A stretch of DNA of 64,000 bases from a phage, in the NCBI GenBank assembly GCA_024572335.1, contig GCA_024572335.1_3052.1. One strand, written 5' to 3'. The notes beneath the pieces were generated by a model. The model did no database searches, had not been told where the DNA came from, and saw nothing but the letters and a program-made list of their open reading frames with translations. Of this stretch, positions 2,600 through 44,400 are shown in pieces. Every line of letters starts with the position of its first letter. Within the stretch, counting starts at the first letter, position 1. The translations under genes were made by a program, and so were the position numbers.

Positions 2600-2630
2600 G
2601 AATGTGAGAAAGAAAGGCCCAGAGGGCCCG
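2600..2630 (-). terminator. intrinsic terminator
   Basis: minus-strand GGGCCC-UCU-GGGCC followed by UUUCUUUCU. Confidence 0.55.
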
Positions 2631-2632
2631 TC

Positions 2633-3055
2633 TTAGTCTTCTATGATATCTCTATCATATCCAAGTGAAATGAGAGTTTCTTTGAAGTGTTTAATGTTCT
2701 TTTGTCTAGAATCATTAATGAAAATGACTGGATAACGAATGTTAAGAGATGTGAATCCAGCGCGTTTAGCAAGAGATACAATCAGCGGACGATCATACTC
2801 AATCTTACCGTTATTTGTAAGAACTTTATAGAAAGTAAAAGGAGCATTAAGCTCCTTTAGAAGTTTTGTAACTGATTGACATCCAGGACAACGACCTACT
2901 TCTTCGGGGATGCCATAGATTTCAATCTTATTCTTTAAATTCGAGTTTTGTTCCACGAGAAATAATTCCTTGATAAGCCCAGTATGGCGGGTTAACAGAA
3001 TCCTCACCAGAGTTTTCTTCAGGAAAATAAACCTGGATAACGAAGCCGGATTCAT
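2633..3055 (-). CDS. glutaredoxin/NrdH-like redoxin (CPGC active site); start uncertain
   Basis: CPGCQ CxxC motif within IEIYGIPEEVGRCPGCQ...; the domain has no internal Met and its frame overlaps the upstream ORF; only ATG is at 3053-3055 with no SD. Confidence 0.45.
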   Translation of the reverse strand: MNPASLSRFIFLKKTLVRILLTRHTGLIKELFLVEQNSNLKNKIEIYGIPEEVGRCPGCQSVTKLLKELNAPFTFYKVLTNNGKIEYDRPLIVSLAKRAGFTSLNIRYPVIFINDSRQKNIKHFKETLISLGYDRDIIED

Positions 3056-3239
3056 CAAAGGTGAAATAAGTAGTAGGCAGTTCACCTAACAAATCGGCAC
3101 GAGCGTTGATTTCTTCGAGGTCTTGTTCACGTCCAGCCCAGAAGCTTGGGTTCAGACTACATTCATAGAAATAATAGTCATTACCGAACATATCAAAACC
3201 ATTCCAACTCTCTACTACATACCGCTCAAAACTAATCAT
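2928..3239 (-). CDS. hypothetical protein (103 aa)
   Basis: ORF; stop lies inside the redoxin reading frame (see finding). Confidence 0.45.
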   Translation of the reverse strand: MISFERYVVESWNGFDMFGNDYYFYECSLNPSFWAGREQDLEEINARADLLGELPTTYFTFDESGFVIQVYFPEENSGEDSVNPPYWAYQGIISRGTKLEFKE

Positions 3240-3241
3240 AA

Positions 3242-3457
3242 TTAAGCCTTTTTATCAAGAACAGCATTCAGCTTGTTAGTAATTTTATCCAGACGCTTAT
3301 TGAACTCACTAGAAGATAAGCCCTTTTCTGGAGAAATTAAACTAATAACGAAAAATACAACAATAAAAGGAATAAGAAAAATAGCTCCAACTGCCATAAA
3401 CAAAAAGAACGTTACAGTTGTAAGAAAATCAGCTAAACCTTTACGAAATTTATACAT
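3242..3457 (-). CDS. small membrane protein (71 aa, one TM helix)
   Basis: hydrophobic stretch VTFFLFMAVGAIFLIPFIVVFFVISLI. Confidence 0.45.
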   Translation of the reverse strand: MYKFRKGLADFLTTVTFFLFMAVGAIFLIPFIVVFFVISLISPEKGLSSSEFNKRLDKITNKLNAVLDKKA

Positions 3458-3572
3458 ATTTTACCCTTAATTGATTAACCAAGCATTGATAAGCACTAAA
3501 CTATATTGGGAATAAAATTCTGGACCAAAATGAAAAATCATATCATTTATAGTATCCATAATGTAATTCAGT

Positions 3573-4043
3573 TTAATCATGTTTCCACACCCCATCGGTA
3601 TTTGACCAAAGTCGCTGATTATCTGATCCTCGCCACAGCTTTTTGGTCGGAAGATTTTTCTCATACTTCCCATCAATAATAACATCAACATATTTAAGCA
3701 TTTCTAGTTGTTTAATATCTTCAAACTTATATCCTGTCCACAACCAAATGCTTTTATTGGGATAAAGATTTTTAACTGTTTGAACGATGCAATGAATCAC
3801 GTCTCTGTTATCAGGATAAAGAGGGTCACCTCCGGTTATAGTTAATCCTTCTATATAATCATTATTCAAACATTCAATTAATTGTTCTAGTGTTTCACCA
3901 GTGAATGGAATACCATTTCTAGCATTCCATGTTGATTTATTATAACACCCTTCACATTTATGCAAACAACCTGTAACGAAAAGAACGGTCCTGCAGCCAG
4001 GACCATTAACAAAATCGCAAGGATAAAATCTATCATAATTCAT
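3573..4043 (-). CDS. nrdG: anaerobic ribonucleotide reductase activating protein (radical SAM)
   Basis: 156 aa; CxxxCxxC cluster motif (CLHKCEGC); ATGA overlap with nrdD stop. Confidence 0.9.
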   Translation of the reverse strand: MNYDRFYPCDFVNGPGCRTVLFVTGCLHKCEGCYNKSTWNARNGIPFTGETLEQLIECLNNDYIEGLTITGGDPLYPDNRDVIHCIVQTVKNLYPNKSIWLWTGYKFEDIKQLEMLKYVDVIIDGKYEKNLPTKKLWRGSDNQRLWSNTDGVWKHD

Positions 4044-5857
4044 TGGTGCTTAACCCTATGCATGATTTCTTTATTTTTGCCGAGATTAAATCCGCGTTCG
4101 TTCGGATTTCCAAGATAGCCGCATGTTCTTCTTATTGTGTTCATCTTTTTAGGATCAGTTTCTCCACAGATAGAACAAACAAATCCGTTTTCAGTAGGAG
4201 TCATTTCATGGGTGCTTCCGCATGTAAAACATTTATCTACTGGCATATTAACACCAAAATAATCTAAATGTTGTGCAGCATAATCCCATACAGCCTCAAG
4301 GCCTTTTAGGTTATTTTTCATATCAGGAAGTTCAACATAAGAAATGTGACCACCTGTCGCAATGAAATGATATGGCGCTTCACGAGAAATCTTTTCAAAC
4401 GGAGTAATATTTTCTTCTACTGAAACATGGAAACTGTTAGTGTACCATCCTTTATCGGTAACATCTTTTACACTTCCATATTTTTCTGTATCAAGTTTAC
4501 AGAAGCGATAACAAAGGTTTTCAGCAGGAGTCGAATACAAACTAAAAGCAAACCCAGTTCTTTCAGCCCACTGTTTAAGACGAGCATTCATTTTAGTTAA
4601 AATTTCTTGTCCAATGTCACGACCGACAAGAATATTCAATTCATGAATACCAATGTATCCTAAAGACACTGAACTTCTACCGTTTTTAAATAACTCAATT
4701 ATGTCGTCATCAGGTTTAAGACGAACCCCGAATGCACCTTCTTGGTAAAGAATAGGAGCAACAGTAGCTTTAACTCCTTTTAAGGAACTAATTCTACACA
4801 TCAAAGCTTCAAAACACAAATCCATACGTTCATTGAATAATTCAACAAATTTCTGTTCATTGAACTGTGTTCCAATATAAGAATCCAACGCGATGCGAGG
4901 AAGATTCAGTGTTACAACACCAAGATTATTACGTCCATCAAGAATTTCATTACCAGTCGAATCTTTCCATACGCTCAAGAAACTACGGCAACCCATTGGA
5001 GAAACAGGAATAGATGAACCGGTGATAGCTTTATTATTCTTAACTGAAATAATATCAGGATACATCCTTTTGCTTGCACACTCTAGAGCAAGCTGCTTAA
5101 TATCATAGTTCGGATCGTCTTTATAAAGATTAACGCCTTCTTCAACGAACATAACAAGTTTAGGAAAAATAGGAGTTATCCCATCACGACCAAGACCTTT
5201 AATACGATTTTTCAGAATTGCTTTCTGAATCATTCGTTCAGTCCAGTCAGTTCCCGTACCAAATGTAATTGTTACAAAGGGAGTCTGTCCGTTTGAACTA
5301 AAGAGAGTATTTACTTCATATTCATAAGCTTGGAATGCATCGTATACGTCTTTTTCTGTTTTAGATTGGGCATAATTCAGTGCATCGGCGATTTGCCATT
5401 TTTCTGCGTCCTCGATATGTTTTGCATAGGTGCGTTTAACATAAGGAGAAAGTACTTTATCTACATTCGCAAAAGTCGTTCCGCCGTATTGGTGAGAAGC
5501 AACCTGTGCGGTAATTTGTGCCATAATTGCAGTAGCAACGCCAATTGATTTAGGAGTTTCAATCTGTGCATTACCAAGCTTAAATCCGTTTTCAAGCATT
5601 CCTTTTAAATCTACTAAACAACAATTAGTAAATGGAAGAGCAGGGGAATAATCAATATCATGGAAATGAATAATTCCGCTTTCATGCGCTTTCATAATAA
5701 AAGACGGGACCATATTTTTGGCAATGTGTTTAGACACAATACCAGCCATAAGGTCCCGTTGAGTTGGAAAAACACGAGAATCTTTATTAGCATTCTCGTT
5801 TAAAAGGTCTTTATTAGTTTTATGAATCAATCCTTCAATTTCTTTTTCAATTGTCAT
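4040..5857 (-). CDS. nrdD: anaerobic ribonucleoside-triphosphate reductase (class III, glycyl radical); uninterrupted
   Basis: 605-aa continuous ORF; C-terminal zinc-ribbon CxxC...CxxC and glycyl-radical region; nrdD-nrdG-49 synteny. Confidence 0.93.
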   Translation of the reverse strand: MTIEKEIEGLIHKTNKDLLNENANKDSRVFPTQRDLMAGIVSKHIAKNMVPSFIMKAHESGIIHFHDIDYSPALPFTNCCLVDLKGMLENGFKLGNAQIETPKSIGVATAIMAQITAQVASHQYGGTTFANVDKVLSPYVKRTYAKHIEDAEKWQIADALNYAQSKTEKDVYDAFQAYEYEVNTLFSSNGQTPFVTITFGTGTDWTERMIQKAILKNRIKGLGRDGITPIFPKLVMFVEEGVNLYKDDPNYDIKQLALECASKRMYPDIISVKNNKAITGSSIPVSPMGCRSFLSVWKDSTGNEILDGRNNLGVVTLNLPRIALDSYIGTQFNEQKFVELFNERMDLCFEALMCRISSLKGVKATVAPILYQEGAFGVRLKPDDDIIELFKNGRSSVSLGYIGIHELNILVGRDIGQEILTKMNARLKQWAERTGFAFSLYSTPAENLCYRFCKLDTEKYGSVKDVTDKGWYTNSFHVSVEENITPFEKISREAPYHFIATGGHISYVELPDMKNNLKGLEAVWDYAAQHLDYFGVNMPVDKCFTCGSTHEMTPTENGFVCSICGETDPKKMNTIRRTCGYLGNPNERGFNLGKNKEIMHRVKHQ

Positions 5858-12138: not shown

Positions 12139-12539
12139 TTTTCAATTTTACTAAATACACAGAATATGATGGAAAAGACTATATAAGCACCGCATACAGA
12201 TTGAACTAATACCATTCCAAAGAACCAAACAATATTATCAAACAATGTCTGTTTTACGTCGAAAGGACGTAAACTTACAGTAATATTATCGCCTTTTTCT
12301 ATTGATGAATACATCTCTGGTGAAATATATTCACTAAATCTATAACCGTCTTTGAGTTCATATACGGCAATAAACGATAAACTAGACCCCTTTCCTTGAG
12401 TTCCTGTAAGGGTATTAACTACAGTAACATCATAATCTTTATAATGCATATAATCATTAATTGCGTAATAACCATATGCAATTACTACACATAAACAACA
12501 TATCAATAAATTCAATCTTTTAATTATCAACTGTTTCAT
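12135..12539 (-). CDS. membrane protein (134 aa, N- and C-terminal TM helices)
   Basis: hydrophobic segments LNLLICCLCVVIAYGYYAI and IVWFFGMVLVQSVCGAYIVFSIIFCVF; preceded by TGGTATAAT extended -10. Confidence 0.5.
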   Translation of the reverse strand: MKQLIIKRLNLLICCLCVVIAYGYYAINDYMHYKDYDVTVVNTLTGTQGKGSSLSFIAVYELKDGYRFSEYISPEMYSSIEKGDNITVSLRPFDVKQTLFDNIVWFFGMVLVQSVCGAYIVFSIIFCVFSKIEN

Positions 12540-30693: not shown

Positions 30694-30770
<77 letters not shown>

Positions 30771-30777
30771 TATTTTG

Positions 30778-30849
30778 CGGACGTGATAGGATTCGAACCT
30801 ATAACCAATCGCTTAACAGGCGATCGCTCTGCCATTGAGCTACACATCC
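30778..30849 (-). tRNA. tRNA-Asn (anticodon GUU)
   Basis: acceptor GGATGTG/CACGTCC, anticodon arm ATCGC-CTGTTAA-GCGAT, T-loop TTCGAAT; no encoded CCA. Confidence 0.75.
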
Positions 30850-30853
30850 AAAT

Positions 30854-30940
30854 TGGTGGGGAGTGGTGGAGTCGAACCACCCGAGTCGCAATGACAATGA
30901 ATTTACAGTCCACACCGCTACCTCTACGGGATAACTCCCC
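30854..30940 (-). tRNA. tRNA-Tyr (anticodon GUA), class II with long variable arm
   Basis: acceptor GGGGAGT/ACTCCCC, anticodon loop CTGTAAA (as in E. coli tRNA-Tyr), T-arm GGTGG-TTCGACT-CCACC, CCA; D-arm atypical. Confidence 0.6.
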
Positions 30941-30949
30941 AAATTAATT

Positions 30950-31024
30950 TGGTGGCCCTGGGTGGAATTGAACCACCATCTGGCGATTATGAGTCGCTTG
31001 CTTGAACCTTCCAGCTACAGGGCC
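30950..31024 (-). tRNA. tRNA-Ile (anticodon CAU, probably lysidine-modified, AUA-reading)
   Basis: acceptor GGCCCTG/CAGGGCC, anticodon stem-loop GCGACTCATAATCGC resembling E. coli ileX, CCA encoded. Confidence 0.75.
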
Positions 31025-31025
31025 T

Positions 31026-31101
31026 TGGTGCTGATTAACGGAATCGAACCGCCGACCTTCTCATTACAAGTGAGTTGCTCTACCTACTGAGCTAAATCAG
31101 C
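31026..31101 (-). tRNA. tRNA-Thr (anticodon UGU)
   Basis: acceptor GCTGATT/AATCAGC, anticodon loop CTTGTAA, T-loop TTCGATT, CCA. Confidence 0.8.
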
Positions 31102-31106
31102 AAAAC

Positions 31107-31196
31107 TGGCGGAGGCGATAGGATTTGAACCTATGAGTCGCCGGAGCGACTGCCGGTTTTCAAGACCGGTGCATTAAACCACTCTGCCACGCCTCC
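31107..31196 (-). tRNA. tRNA-Ser (anticodon UGA), long variable arm
   Basis: acceptor GGAGGCG/CGCCTCC, anticodon arm CCGGT-CTTGAAA-ACCGG, T-loop TTCAAAT, CCA. Confidence 0.8.
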
Positions 31197-31198
31197 AG

Positions 31199-31273
31199 TC
31201 TCCATACAAGGATTTGAACCTTGGACCTCCTGATCCCAAATCAGGCGCTCTACCAAACTGAGCTACACGGAGT
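31199..31273 (-). tRNA. tRNA-Pro (anticodon UGG)
   Basis: anticodon arm CCTGA-TTTGGGA-TCAGG, T-arm CAAGG-TTCAAAT-CCTTG; 2 nt from tRNA-Ser; no encoded CCA. Confidence 0.75.
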
Positions 31274-31282
31274 AAATTAAAT

Positions 31283-31356
<74 letters not shown>

Positions 31357-31361
31357 AAATT

Positions 31362-31448
31362 TGGTGCGAGAAGTGGGACTCGAACCCACAAGGAAATCAT
31401 TCCGCAGCATTTTAAGTGCTGTGCCTTTACCAATTTGACCATTCTCGC
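31362..31448 (-). tRNA. tRNA-Leu (anticodon UAA), long variable arm
   Basis: acceptor GCGAGAA/TTCTCGC, anticodon arm CAGCA-CTTAAAA-TGCTG, T-loop TTCGAGT, CCA. Confidence 0.8.
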
Positions 31449-31449
31449 G

Positions 31450-31522
31450 CTGGGAATAAAGGACTCGAACCTTTGCATCCTGGAATCAAAATCCAGTGCC
31501 TTACCAACTTGGCTAATTCCCA
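31450..31522 (-). tRNA. tRNA-Gln (anticodon UUG)
   Basis: acceptor TGGGAAT/ATTCCCA, anticodon arm CTGGA-TTTTGAT-TCCAG, T-loop TTCGAGT; 1 nt from tRNA-Leu. Confidence 0.8.
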
Positions 31523-41447: not shown

Positions 41448-44400
41448 CAGTAAAAGCACCTTCAGTCACTAGTCTCAGAATTTCCAAGTTATCCGCAAAT
41501 CAGGTGCAAGTACGCTGGGATGACGTTGGTGCTAATTTCTACTATTTTGTAGAAATCGCTGAGACAAAAACAAACTCGGGAGAAAATCTCCCGAGCAATC
41601 AATACAGATGGATTAACTTAGGATATACTGCAAATAACAGCTTCTTTTTTGATAATGCTAATCCATTAACATCGTACATTATTAGAGTAGCTACAGCTGC
41701 GCAGGATTTTGAGCAGTCTGATTGGATTTATACTGAAGAGTTTGAAACTTTTGCTACGAATGCTTACACATTTCAAAACATGATTGAAATGCAATTAGCC
41801 AATAAATTCATTCAGGAAAAGTTTACTCTTAACAATTCTAATTATGTCAATTTTAATAATGACACTATAATGGCTGCATTGATGAATGAATCGTTCCAAT
41901 TCAGCCCATCATATGTTGATGTTTCATCAATCAGTAATTTTATTATTGGTGAAAATGAGTATCATGAAATACAAGGTTCCATTCAGCAAGTATGTAAGGA
42001 TATTAACCGAGTTTATTTGATGGAATCAGAAGGGATTCTATATCTTTTTGAGCGTTATCAACCCGTGGTTAAAGTATCTAATGATAAAGGACAAACCTGG
42101 AAAGCTGTAAAGCTCTTCAATGACCGTGTAGGATATCCTTTATCTAAGACAGTATATTACCAATCTGCGAACACTACATACGTTCTAGGATACGACAAGA
42201 TTTTCTATGGCCGCAAATCTACTGATGTTAGATGGTCAGCTGATGATGTCAGATTCAGTTCACAGGATATAACATTCGCTAAACTTGGCGACCAATTACA
42301 TTTAGGATTTGATGTAGAAATTTTTGCCACTTATGCGACTTTACCAGCGAATGTATACCGCATTGCAGAAGCTATTACTTGCACCGATGATTACATTTAC
42401 GTTGTCGCCAGAGACAAAGTTAGATACATAAAAACGAGTAATGCACCTATAGATTCTGATCCATTATCTCCAACATATTCGGAAAGACTTTTTGAACCTG
42501 ATACCATGACTATAACCGGAAATCCTAAAGCAGTATGCTATAAAATGGATTCTGTTGGTGATAAAGTTTTTGCTCTTATTATTGGTGAAGTTGAAACATT
42601 AAATGCCAATCCTAGAACATCAAAAATAATTGATTCTGCTGATAAAGGAATATATGTTTTAAACCATGATACGAAAACGTGGAAAAGAGTTTTCGGTAAT
42701 ACCGAAGAAGAAAGAAGACGTATTCAACCCGGATATGCGAATATGTCAACTGACGGTAAATTAGTTTCTCTATCTTCGAGTAATTTTAAATTTTTAAGTG
42801 ATAACATTGTTAATGACCCTGAAACTGTGGTGAAATATCAGTTAATCGGTGCTGTTAAATATGAATTTCCTCGTGAATGGTTAGCTGATAAGCATTATCA
42901 TATGATGGCATTTATAGCGGATGAAAAATCTGATTGGGAGACTTTTACTCCTCAACCAATGAAATACTACGCAGAACCGTTCTTTAACTGGTCTAAAAAA
43001 TCTAACACACGATGTTGGATAAACAACTCTGATAGAGCTGTAGTAGTTTATGCTGATTTAAAATACACTAAAGTTATAGAAAATATTCCAGAAACATCAC
43101 CAGATAGATTAGTTCATGAATACTGGGATGATGGTGATTGCACGATAGTAATGCCAAATGTTAAATTCACCGGATTTAAAAAATACGCATCAGGAATGCT
43201 TTTCTACAAATCTTCTGGCGAAATAATTTCTTATTATGATTTTAACTATCGTGTGAGAGATACAGTAGAAATTATTTGGAAGCCAACTGAAGTATTTTTA
43301 AAAGCATTTTTACAAAACCAAGAGCGCGAAACTCCTTGGTCACCAGAAGAAGAACGTGGATTAGCTGACCCTGATTTAAGACCATTAATTGGCACAATGA
43401 TGCCTGATTCTTACTTGTTACAAGATTCTAATTTTGAGGCATTTTGTGAAGCATATATTCAATATCTTTCTGACGGATATGGAACTCAGTATAACAATTT
43501 ACGAAATTTAATTCGTAACCAATATCCACGAGAAGAGCATGCGTGGGAATATTTGTGGTCAGAGATATATAAAAGAAACATTTATTTAAATGCTGATAAA
43601 CGTGATGCTGTTGCGAGATTCTTTGAATCACGTAGCTATGATTTTTATTCTACTAAAGGAATTGAAGCATCATACAAGTTTCTTTTTAAAGTTCTTTATA
43701 ATGAAGAAGTTGAAATTGAAATTGAATCTGGGGCCGGTACTGAATATGACATAATCGTTCAATCTGATTCTTTGACTGAAGATTTAGTAGGACAAACGAT
43801 TTATACGGCAACAGGAAGATGTAATGTTACTTATATAGAAAGAAGCTATTCTAATGGTAAATTGCAATGGACCGTAACTATTCATAATCTTTTAGGACGA
43901 TTAATTGCTGGTCAAGAAGTTAAAGCAGAAAGACTCCCTGGTTTTGAAGGCGAAATTATTCGTGGGGTTAAAGGAAAGGATTTGCTTCAAAACAATATAG
44001 ACTATATTAATAGAAGTAGATCATACTATGTAATGAAAATTAAATCCAATTTACCTTCTTCCCGTTGGAAATCTGACGTTATTCGTTTTGTTCATCCAGT
44101 AGGATTTGGATTTATAGCAATTACCCTTTTAACGATGTTTATTAATGTTGGTTTAACTCTTAAACACACAGAGACTATAATTAATAAATACAAAAACTAT
44201 AAATGGGATTCTGGATTGCCTACTGAATATGCTGATAGAGTAGCTAAATTAACTCCAACCGGTGAAATTGAGCATGATTCAGTAACAGGCGAAGCAATTT
44301 ATGAGCCTGGCCCAATGGCTGGTGTAGAATATCCTCTTCCTGATGACTATAATGCTGAAAATAATAATTCAATATTTCAAGGTCAATTGCCGTCTGAACG

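Follow-up and report, generated by a model that had tools for sequence, protein, structure and literature searches.

A conserved GTG codon behind a Shine-Dalgarno sequence as the probable start of nrdH in a T4-like phage genome segment

The redoxin domain encoded on the minus strand at 2926-2636 of the window (here, the whole 64,000-nucleotide stretch of phage DNA that was analysed) very probably belongs to a 107-aa CPGC glutaredoxin, NrdH, which would be produced by ordinary Shine-Dalgarno (SD)-directed initiation at a GTG codon on a transcript shared with gene 55.8 and a 103-aa open reading frame (ORF). In this model, ribosomes would initiate independently at the GTG (2956-2954), guided by an AAGGA sequence at 2971-2967. 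The nrdH start signals would thereby be housed inside the 3′ end of the 103-aa gene, where the two genes, read in different frames, share 29 nt. Synthesis of NrdH may be aided by translation of the 103-aa gene, which would keep the site open or act through coupling. The GTG and the SD are present and conserved among relatives, and the constraint on the surrounding sequence is frame-specific. The first-pass annotation had described the domain as lacking a start codon of its own and had overlooked this in-frame GTG with its AAGGA. A non-ATG start was among the options that it offered, and that option is borne out by a GTG with an SD that is conserved across genera and used in curated annotations.

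Gene order around nrdH

The window is a genome segment of a Tequatrovirus (T4-like) phage. A 1-kb query around the nrdH locus matched 685 phage records, 420 of them with a coverage of at least 80%, and the identity was 99% to ECO4, 99% to vB_EcoM_G4507, and 98.6% to RB14. All genes of the region are on the minus strand. In the listed order of transcription, gene 49 (6327-5854) comes first, followed by nrdD (5857-4040) and nrdG (4043-3573). Gene 55.8 (3242..3457), which encodes a predicted membrane protein of 71 aa (phrog_1930), heads the run 55.8/103-aa ORF/nrdH. The 103-aa ORF (2928..3239) belongs to the RB69ORF082c family (phrog_2749). The nrdH coding sequence (2633..2956) comprises 107 codons and the stop codon TAA at 2635-2633. 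Directly 3′ of nrdH is a terminator-like hairpin at 2605..2629 (GGGCCCTCTGGGCC; stem 2629-2615 and a T-rich tail), and the fPS-65 record annotates a terminator at the matching position. An early-type promoter (2533-2505) is located between this hairpin and gene 55.6 (2474-2292). The genes 55.8, 103-aa ORF, and nrdH would be co-transcribed, because a consensus scan gave no promoter-like site between 55.8 and nrdH and the terminator-like hairpin follows nrdH.

Other features of the window merit mention. The nrdD gene (in the 3573-5857 region) is an uninterrupted ORF of 605 aa, the 3′ end of which overlaps the start of nrdG; therefore, the window phage lacks the group I intron with I-TevII that T4 carries in nrdD, as well as the mobC homing-endonuclease gene that T4 has there. 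A small ORF at 3467-3691 (minus strand), overlapping the 3′ end of nrdG, is a candidate gene, and its last 37 codons correspond to a hypothetical protein in ECO4, fPS-65, CT01, and RB51 (RB32ORF074c). Farther away, the minus strand carries a cluster of 10 tRNA genes at 30694-31522, for tRNAs Gln, Leu, Gly, Pro, Ser, Thr, Met(CAT), Tyr, Asn, and Arg. The Rfam tRNA model reached its gathering score for nine of the 10; it missed the 87-nt tRNA-Tyr, which ARAGORN found.

The GTG codon, its Shine-Dalgarno sequence, and their conservation

The redoxin frame is open on the minus strand from 3085 down to the stop codon at 2633-2635. As the first-pass annotation noted, the 97-aa domain (IEIYGIPEEVGRCPGCQ...DIIED) is without methionine, and the only in-frame ATG (3055-3053) is 125 nt upstream of the stop codon of the upstream ORF and has no SD. 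Its reading of that stop codon was right in part. The 103-aa ORF does end with TAA at 2930-2928, in a frame one base behind; these bases are not a stop in the redoxin frame, where they are read as AAT-AAG (Asn-Lys).

The in-frame GTG lies 10 codons before IEIYG, and the AAGGA is positioned 10 nt upstream of the GTG, within the YQG codons of the 103-aa ORF. With 10 nt, the spacing is near the upper limit of what is efficient in E. coli. The corresponding distance is 6 nt in T4 and 8-9 nt in other genera. For each in-frame candidate, the 20 nt upstream were paired with the 3′ end of 16S rRNA and the duplex energy was calculated. The value for GTG2956, -5.4 kcal/mol, is inside the range for the neighbouring genes (-2.4 to -6.9 kcal/mol), while about 10% of arbitrary positions attain -5 kcal/mol. 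The other candidates gave -1.0 (GTG3007), -0.9 (ATT2926), +0.3 (GTG3085), +2.2 (TTG3058), and +2.6 kcal/mol (ATG3055). On the basis of SD strength together with the substitution-phase data discussed below, ATT2926, GTG3007, TTG3058, and GTG3085 were rejected as starts. The RNA around the GTG and the junction is not more structured than shuffled controls (z = +0.78). Moreover, the record of phage Mizar contains an explicit ribosome_binding_site feature at the position of the nrdH SD.

The 103-aa ORF is present at full length in 526 phage records, and 544 records cover both halves of the locus, i.e., the 103-aa ORF and nrdH. Approximately 30 loci out of these 544 were read, covering several Tequatrovirus species (L001-3, 5-7, 11, 12, 31, and 33-35), Mosigvirus RB69, Dhakavirus JS98, Kanagawavirus IME523, Mosugukvirus PM2, and the IMG/VR contigs L013-L016. 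The GTG and the SD accompany the 103-aa ORF in all sampled relatives that have it, in five genera altogether, with the motif out of frame in PM2. At the loci read, an in-frame GTG with an upstream SD sits 15-30 nt before the I/V-E-I/V-Y-G codons, and the SD in the other genera is AAGGAG or GAAGGTGG, with duplex energies of -8.0 to -8.6 kcal/mol. The codon of the upstream frame to which the "GT" belongs alternates between CGT, TGT, and AGT (Arg, Cys, and Ser), and the GTG is invariant. This pattern points to a constraint acting on the nucleotides and not on the upstream protein. Conservation of the SD, being in the YQG codons, could partly come from the upstream protein.

In some relatives, the GTG is the only canonical start available to nrdH. 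In L013-L016, a TGA or TAA is present in the nrdH frame between the SD and the GTG, and in Shigella phage CT01, a deletion removes the counterpart of ATG3055 while an in-frame stop codon remains upstream; NrdH is intact in all of them. The CT01 deletion (OK018184; locus L030, 612-875) lies between the short direct repeats GAATTCTGTT and GGATTCTGTT, and it joins 55.8, in frame, with the final 24 codons of the 103-aa ORF and leaves the nrdH SD and GTG in place. The CT01 layout is intermediate between those of the window and T4. Two further variants were seen among the relatives. In RB69 (AY303349; locus L027, 984-1256), the frame breaks near the 3′ end of nrdH (...LNDKKQRYCRV*, annotated as 90 aa) at the point where its relatives continue to ...GYDSDIIED, possibly as a result of an old sequencing error. 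The protein cluster P0002 is a 101-aa variant of the 103-aa protein that ends ...YQGNYFSWNKTQT, the third frame being entered in the nrdH SD/GTG region; the frame change reflects either an indel or a misassembly in the source.

The phase of the substitutions was compared in 12 distinct, gap-free close relatives. Variable sites fall at the wobble position of the 103-aa ORF, which is position 2 of the nrdH frame, in 22 of 26 cases in 3239-3086, in 10 of 14 in 3085-3008, and in 7 of 7 in 3007-2957. Within the 29-nt overlap (2928..2956), variation is restricted to positions 2939 and 2930, each of which is a wobble position of nrdH. The variants are synonymous in NrdH (AAT/AAC) but change the upstream frame, F/L at the one and stop-to-Gln (TAA to CAA) at the other. 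In RB69, TAA to CAA moves the upstream stop two codons on, and the same change is the synonymous AAT to AAC in nrdH. In the downstream part of nrdH, 42 of 62 variable sites are at wobble positions, and the sequence of NrdH is under purifying selection. Hence, the phase of the variation switches at the GTG, from upstream-ORF wobble to nrdH wobble. The switch indicates that the nrdH frame is translated upstream of 2941 and therefore argues against a start at ATT2926. Collectively, the SD lies within 5-13 nt upstream of the GTG, it is conserved, and the coding constraint starts at the GTG, as expected for canonical SD-led GTG initiation.

Other routes to the redoxin domain

An alternative start at ATG3055 (3055-3053, minus strand) would give an NrdH of 140 aa, with a 43-residue extension that would be encoded wholly by sequence of the 103-aa ORF. 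No other in-frame ATG exists, the codon is shared by the Tequatrovirus relatives, and two GenBank records (AR1 and fPS-65) take it as the start. Nevertheless, we consider its use very unlikely. The ATG arises from GAT-GAA codons of the 103-aa ORF, and these Asp-Glu codons of the upstream protein explain its conservation. It has no SD, as noted above, and of the 13 variable sites from this ATG to the GTG, 12 are at position 2 of the nrdH frame, so that the extension would change freely (MNPASL/MRLDLL/MHLDLL). Moreover, NrdH would be deprived of this start in L013-L016, where stop codons in its frame follow the equivalent position, and in CT01, through the deletion, yet it is intact in both. Reinitiation is another route, in which NrdH would be made only after termination at TAA 2930-2928, e.g., by restart at ATT2926 or SD-independent restart at the GTG. 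Termination-reinitiation coupling is well known in tightly packed phage genes, and here the stop and the possible restart codons are within 30 nt of each other. Such an obligate dependence is nonetheless very unlikely. ATT is a very poor start codon and has no SD here, and the synonymous changes at 2939 and 2930 imply that codons upstream of the ATT are translated as NrdH. T4, furthermore, retains the GTG and SD after deletion of the 103-aa ORF (see below); therefore, the site works without this ORF, which speaks against obligate reinitiation.

The first-pass annotation had also raised a +1 frameshift fusion that would join both domains in a protein of about 200 aa; such a shift would be a programmed one near the upstream stop. 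The geometry is compatible with this idea, as the domain is read in the +1 frame of the 103-aa ORF and the stop of this ORF just precedes it; this is also the extent of its likeness to prfB-type +1 frameshifting. In contrast to a prfB-type site, the window junction (GAA-TAA-G) has no P-site codon able to re-pair, given that the last sense codon GAA cannot do so in +1, there is no SD 3 nt upstream of a shift site, and the sequence is not conserved. The end of the upstream ORF differs by lineage (KLEFKE*, KEQD*, KVN*, ITKD*, KLD*, and KLN*, with differences in RB69, JS98, IME523, and L013-L016), and the shuffled-control comparison above gives no sign of a stimulatory RNA structure at the junction. 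A large protein-database search returned four clusters homologous to the 103-aa ORF; all four are 97-105 aa long and none is a fused form. Nor does frameshifting explain the conserved GTG and SD or the constraint in the nrdH phase. Taken together with the rarity of in-frame fusions described below, these data make frameshifting exceedingly improbable. A slippery-looking (-1) heptamer, T-TTA-AAG at 2936-2942 (minus strand), is present in the nrdH frame of the window and of ECO4; most relatives have C-TTA-AAG, and the heptamer probably arose by chance. As for a broken nrdH, the T4 gene directly follows 55.8 with no overlap, and the window looks at first like the outcome of an insertion of the 103-aa ORF that removed the start, leaving a pseudogene, or like a sequencing or assembly indel. 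The layout is identical, however, in hundreds of independently sequenced phages (420, 526, or 544 records, depending on the criteria), and an indel as the source of the arrangement does not fit its occurrence in more than 500 records. The wobble-biased variation of NrdH, indicative of purifying selection, does not fit a decaying gene, and T4 emerges from the DNA alignment as a deletion derivative with the same GTG and SD. The shared layout and the 98% identity to T4 NrdH therefore effectively exclude an indel or decay, and a broken gene has practically no likelihood. Initiation at GTG2956 is thus the reading that we retain.

The fused form that an ortholog comparison, proposed in the first-pass annotation, might have revealed is confined to one phage. 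Two overlapping genes are the usual arrangement; of the 544 records that span both halves, only the two of Pectobacterium phage PM2 show a single in-frame ORF. In the deposited PM2 genome (KF835987; locus L032, 11902-12501), the homologue of the 103-aa ORF and NrdH are fused in frame as a 199-aa "glutaredoxin", which raises the thought that a fusion might be tolerated. The junction (near 12205-12220 of the locus, with the A7 run near 42,205-42,215 of KF835987) reads GGAAAAAAATATCC and includes an A7 run. With one additional A (A8), the upstream ORF ends ...SSGKKIS* and a GTG-initiated NrdH (VEKKYPKIEIYG) follows behind the same tatcAAGGAAttatttctaGTG context. The simplest explanations of the fusion are a sequencing error in the homopolymer, which is the probable one, and a 1-nt deletion of very recent date. 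It is no support for frameshifting in the window. The active site of PM2 NrdH is CAGC and not CPGC.

All sampled phages with the 103-aa ORF have it directly before nrdH, with the nrdH start inside the overlap. From this arrangement, one may suppose that the protein it encodes (phrog_2749) serves NrdH as a dedicated partner, a suggestion that we consider rather doubtful. If the PM2 fusion were real, it would be evidence of the Rosetta-stone type that the 103-aa protein and NrdH are linked, physically or functionally. In this scenario, the 103-aa protein could, e.g., connect NrdH to the anaerobic reductase NrdD/NrdG as an adaptor, and tight translational coupling in the window would set the stoichiometry of the 103-aa protein and NrdH.

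NrdH, its annotation, and related systems

The predicted product of the GTG-initiated gene is fMet-EQNSNLKNK followed by IEIYGIPEEVGRCPGCQ..., i.e., a 10-residue N-terminal tail and a thioredoxin-fold domain whose CPGC active site is encoded at 2879..2890 (minus strand). The 97-aa domain matches Pfam Glutaredoxin (PF00462) over residues 12-72 (score 24.2 bits, above the curated cut-off of 22.9; E = 3.9e-5) and phrog_22, "thioredoxin domain" (3.6e-16). Among the NCBIfam models, any for NrdH-redoxin included, no family matched the 107-aa NrdH at E<=0.01, and the 103-aa ORF protein likewise had no match. The note in the T4 GenBank record states that NrdH is kin to T4 thioredoxin but "has glutaredoxin activity"; a literature search for primary data on the thiol-disulfide oxidoreductase activity of T4 NrdH found none. 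With respect to the start, the search gave no experimental N-terminus or ribosome-profiling data for NrdH in any phage, only reviews and ribonucleotide reductase (RNR) surveys free of start-site data on the expression and N-terminus of T4 NrdH, and nothing specific on non-AUG starts and coupling in T4-like phages.

The correct nrdH start is already found in public records, though not in all of them. RB14, RB51, ECO4, the RefSeq entry of vB_EcoM_OE5505 (YP_010072361), and Mizar carry a 324-nt GTG-initiated nrdH coding sequence that overlaps the upstream 312-nt coding sequence by 29 nt; the architecture is identical to that of the window, with nucleotide differences of at most 1-2%. In the AR1 and fPS-65 records, nrdH begins at the ATG3055 equivalent (140 aa), in the JS98 record at an internal ATG that removes beta-1 (88 aa), and in the IME523 record at an ATG six codons upstream of the GTG (113 aa); in some records, nrdH is uncalled. 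AR1, fPS-65, and JS98 mis-annotate the start. Hence, the value of the present analysis is one of annotation, as the comparative evidence settles the conflicting public starts in favour of the 107-aa GTG form. The biological weight is small: a routine GTG-initiated gene that overlaps its neighbour in a densely packed T4-like genome.

Of the solved structures, that of T4 glutaredoxin ("T4 thioredoxin", the nrdC product; PDB 1AAZ/1ABA/1DE1) is the closest to NrdH by sequence (E about 1e-3). The alignment to 1AAZ/1ABA matches the two proteins at beta-1, at the CxxC motif, and at the conserved Pro that precedes beta-3: CPGC is opposite CVYC/CGPC, and the Pro of RYPVIF in NrdH is opposite that of TMPQVF. 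Both a CxxC after beta-1 and the conserved (cis-)Pro before beta-3 are therefore present in NrdH. The bacterial NrdH-redoxin, the reductant of class Ib RNR, resembles the phage protein in gene name, as a small CxxC thioredoxin-fold protein, and in its link to RNR genes. However, the phage gene adjoins the class III genes nrdD/nrdG and not nrdIEF, no curated NrdH-redoxin model is matched, and the motif is CPGC, whereas the active site of bacterial NrdH is CVQC. The name nrdH follows the gene nomenclature of T4.

The orthologue is T4 nrdH (NP_049686, 102 aa, "NrdH glutaredoxin"). The redoxin domains are 98% identical over 97 residues, and T4 nrdH, like that of the window, is located between 55.8 and 55.6, downstream of nrdD/nrdG, and followed by the same terminator; identity and position together place the window gene in the T4 nrdH orthologue group. 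In its curated annotation, T4 nrdH begins at a GTG (VKQNKIEVYG) that is preceded by an AAGGA SD, and an alignment of the DNA of the window, RB69, CT01, and T4 places the T4 GTG and AAGGAAT on the same columns as those of the window. The difference is that T4 lacks the 103-aa ORF, such that nrdH directly follows 55.8 and overlaps no gene, and the NrdH tail is five residues shorter (VKQNK vs VEQNSNLKNK in the window). Relative to the window, T4 has a large deletion that starts at the end of 55.8 and reaches into the YQG codons of the 103-aa ORF, a deletion of 4 nt between the SD and the GTG, and a deletion of 15 nt (five codons) after GTG-RAA-CAA. The nrdH of T4 is free-standing because the 103-aa ORF was lost by deletion while the same start was kept, which makes it a deletion derivative of the overlapping layout found in the window.
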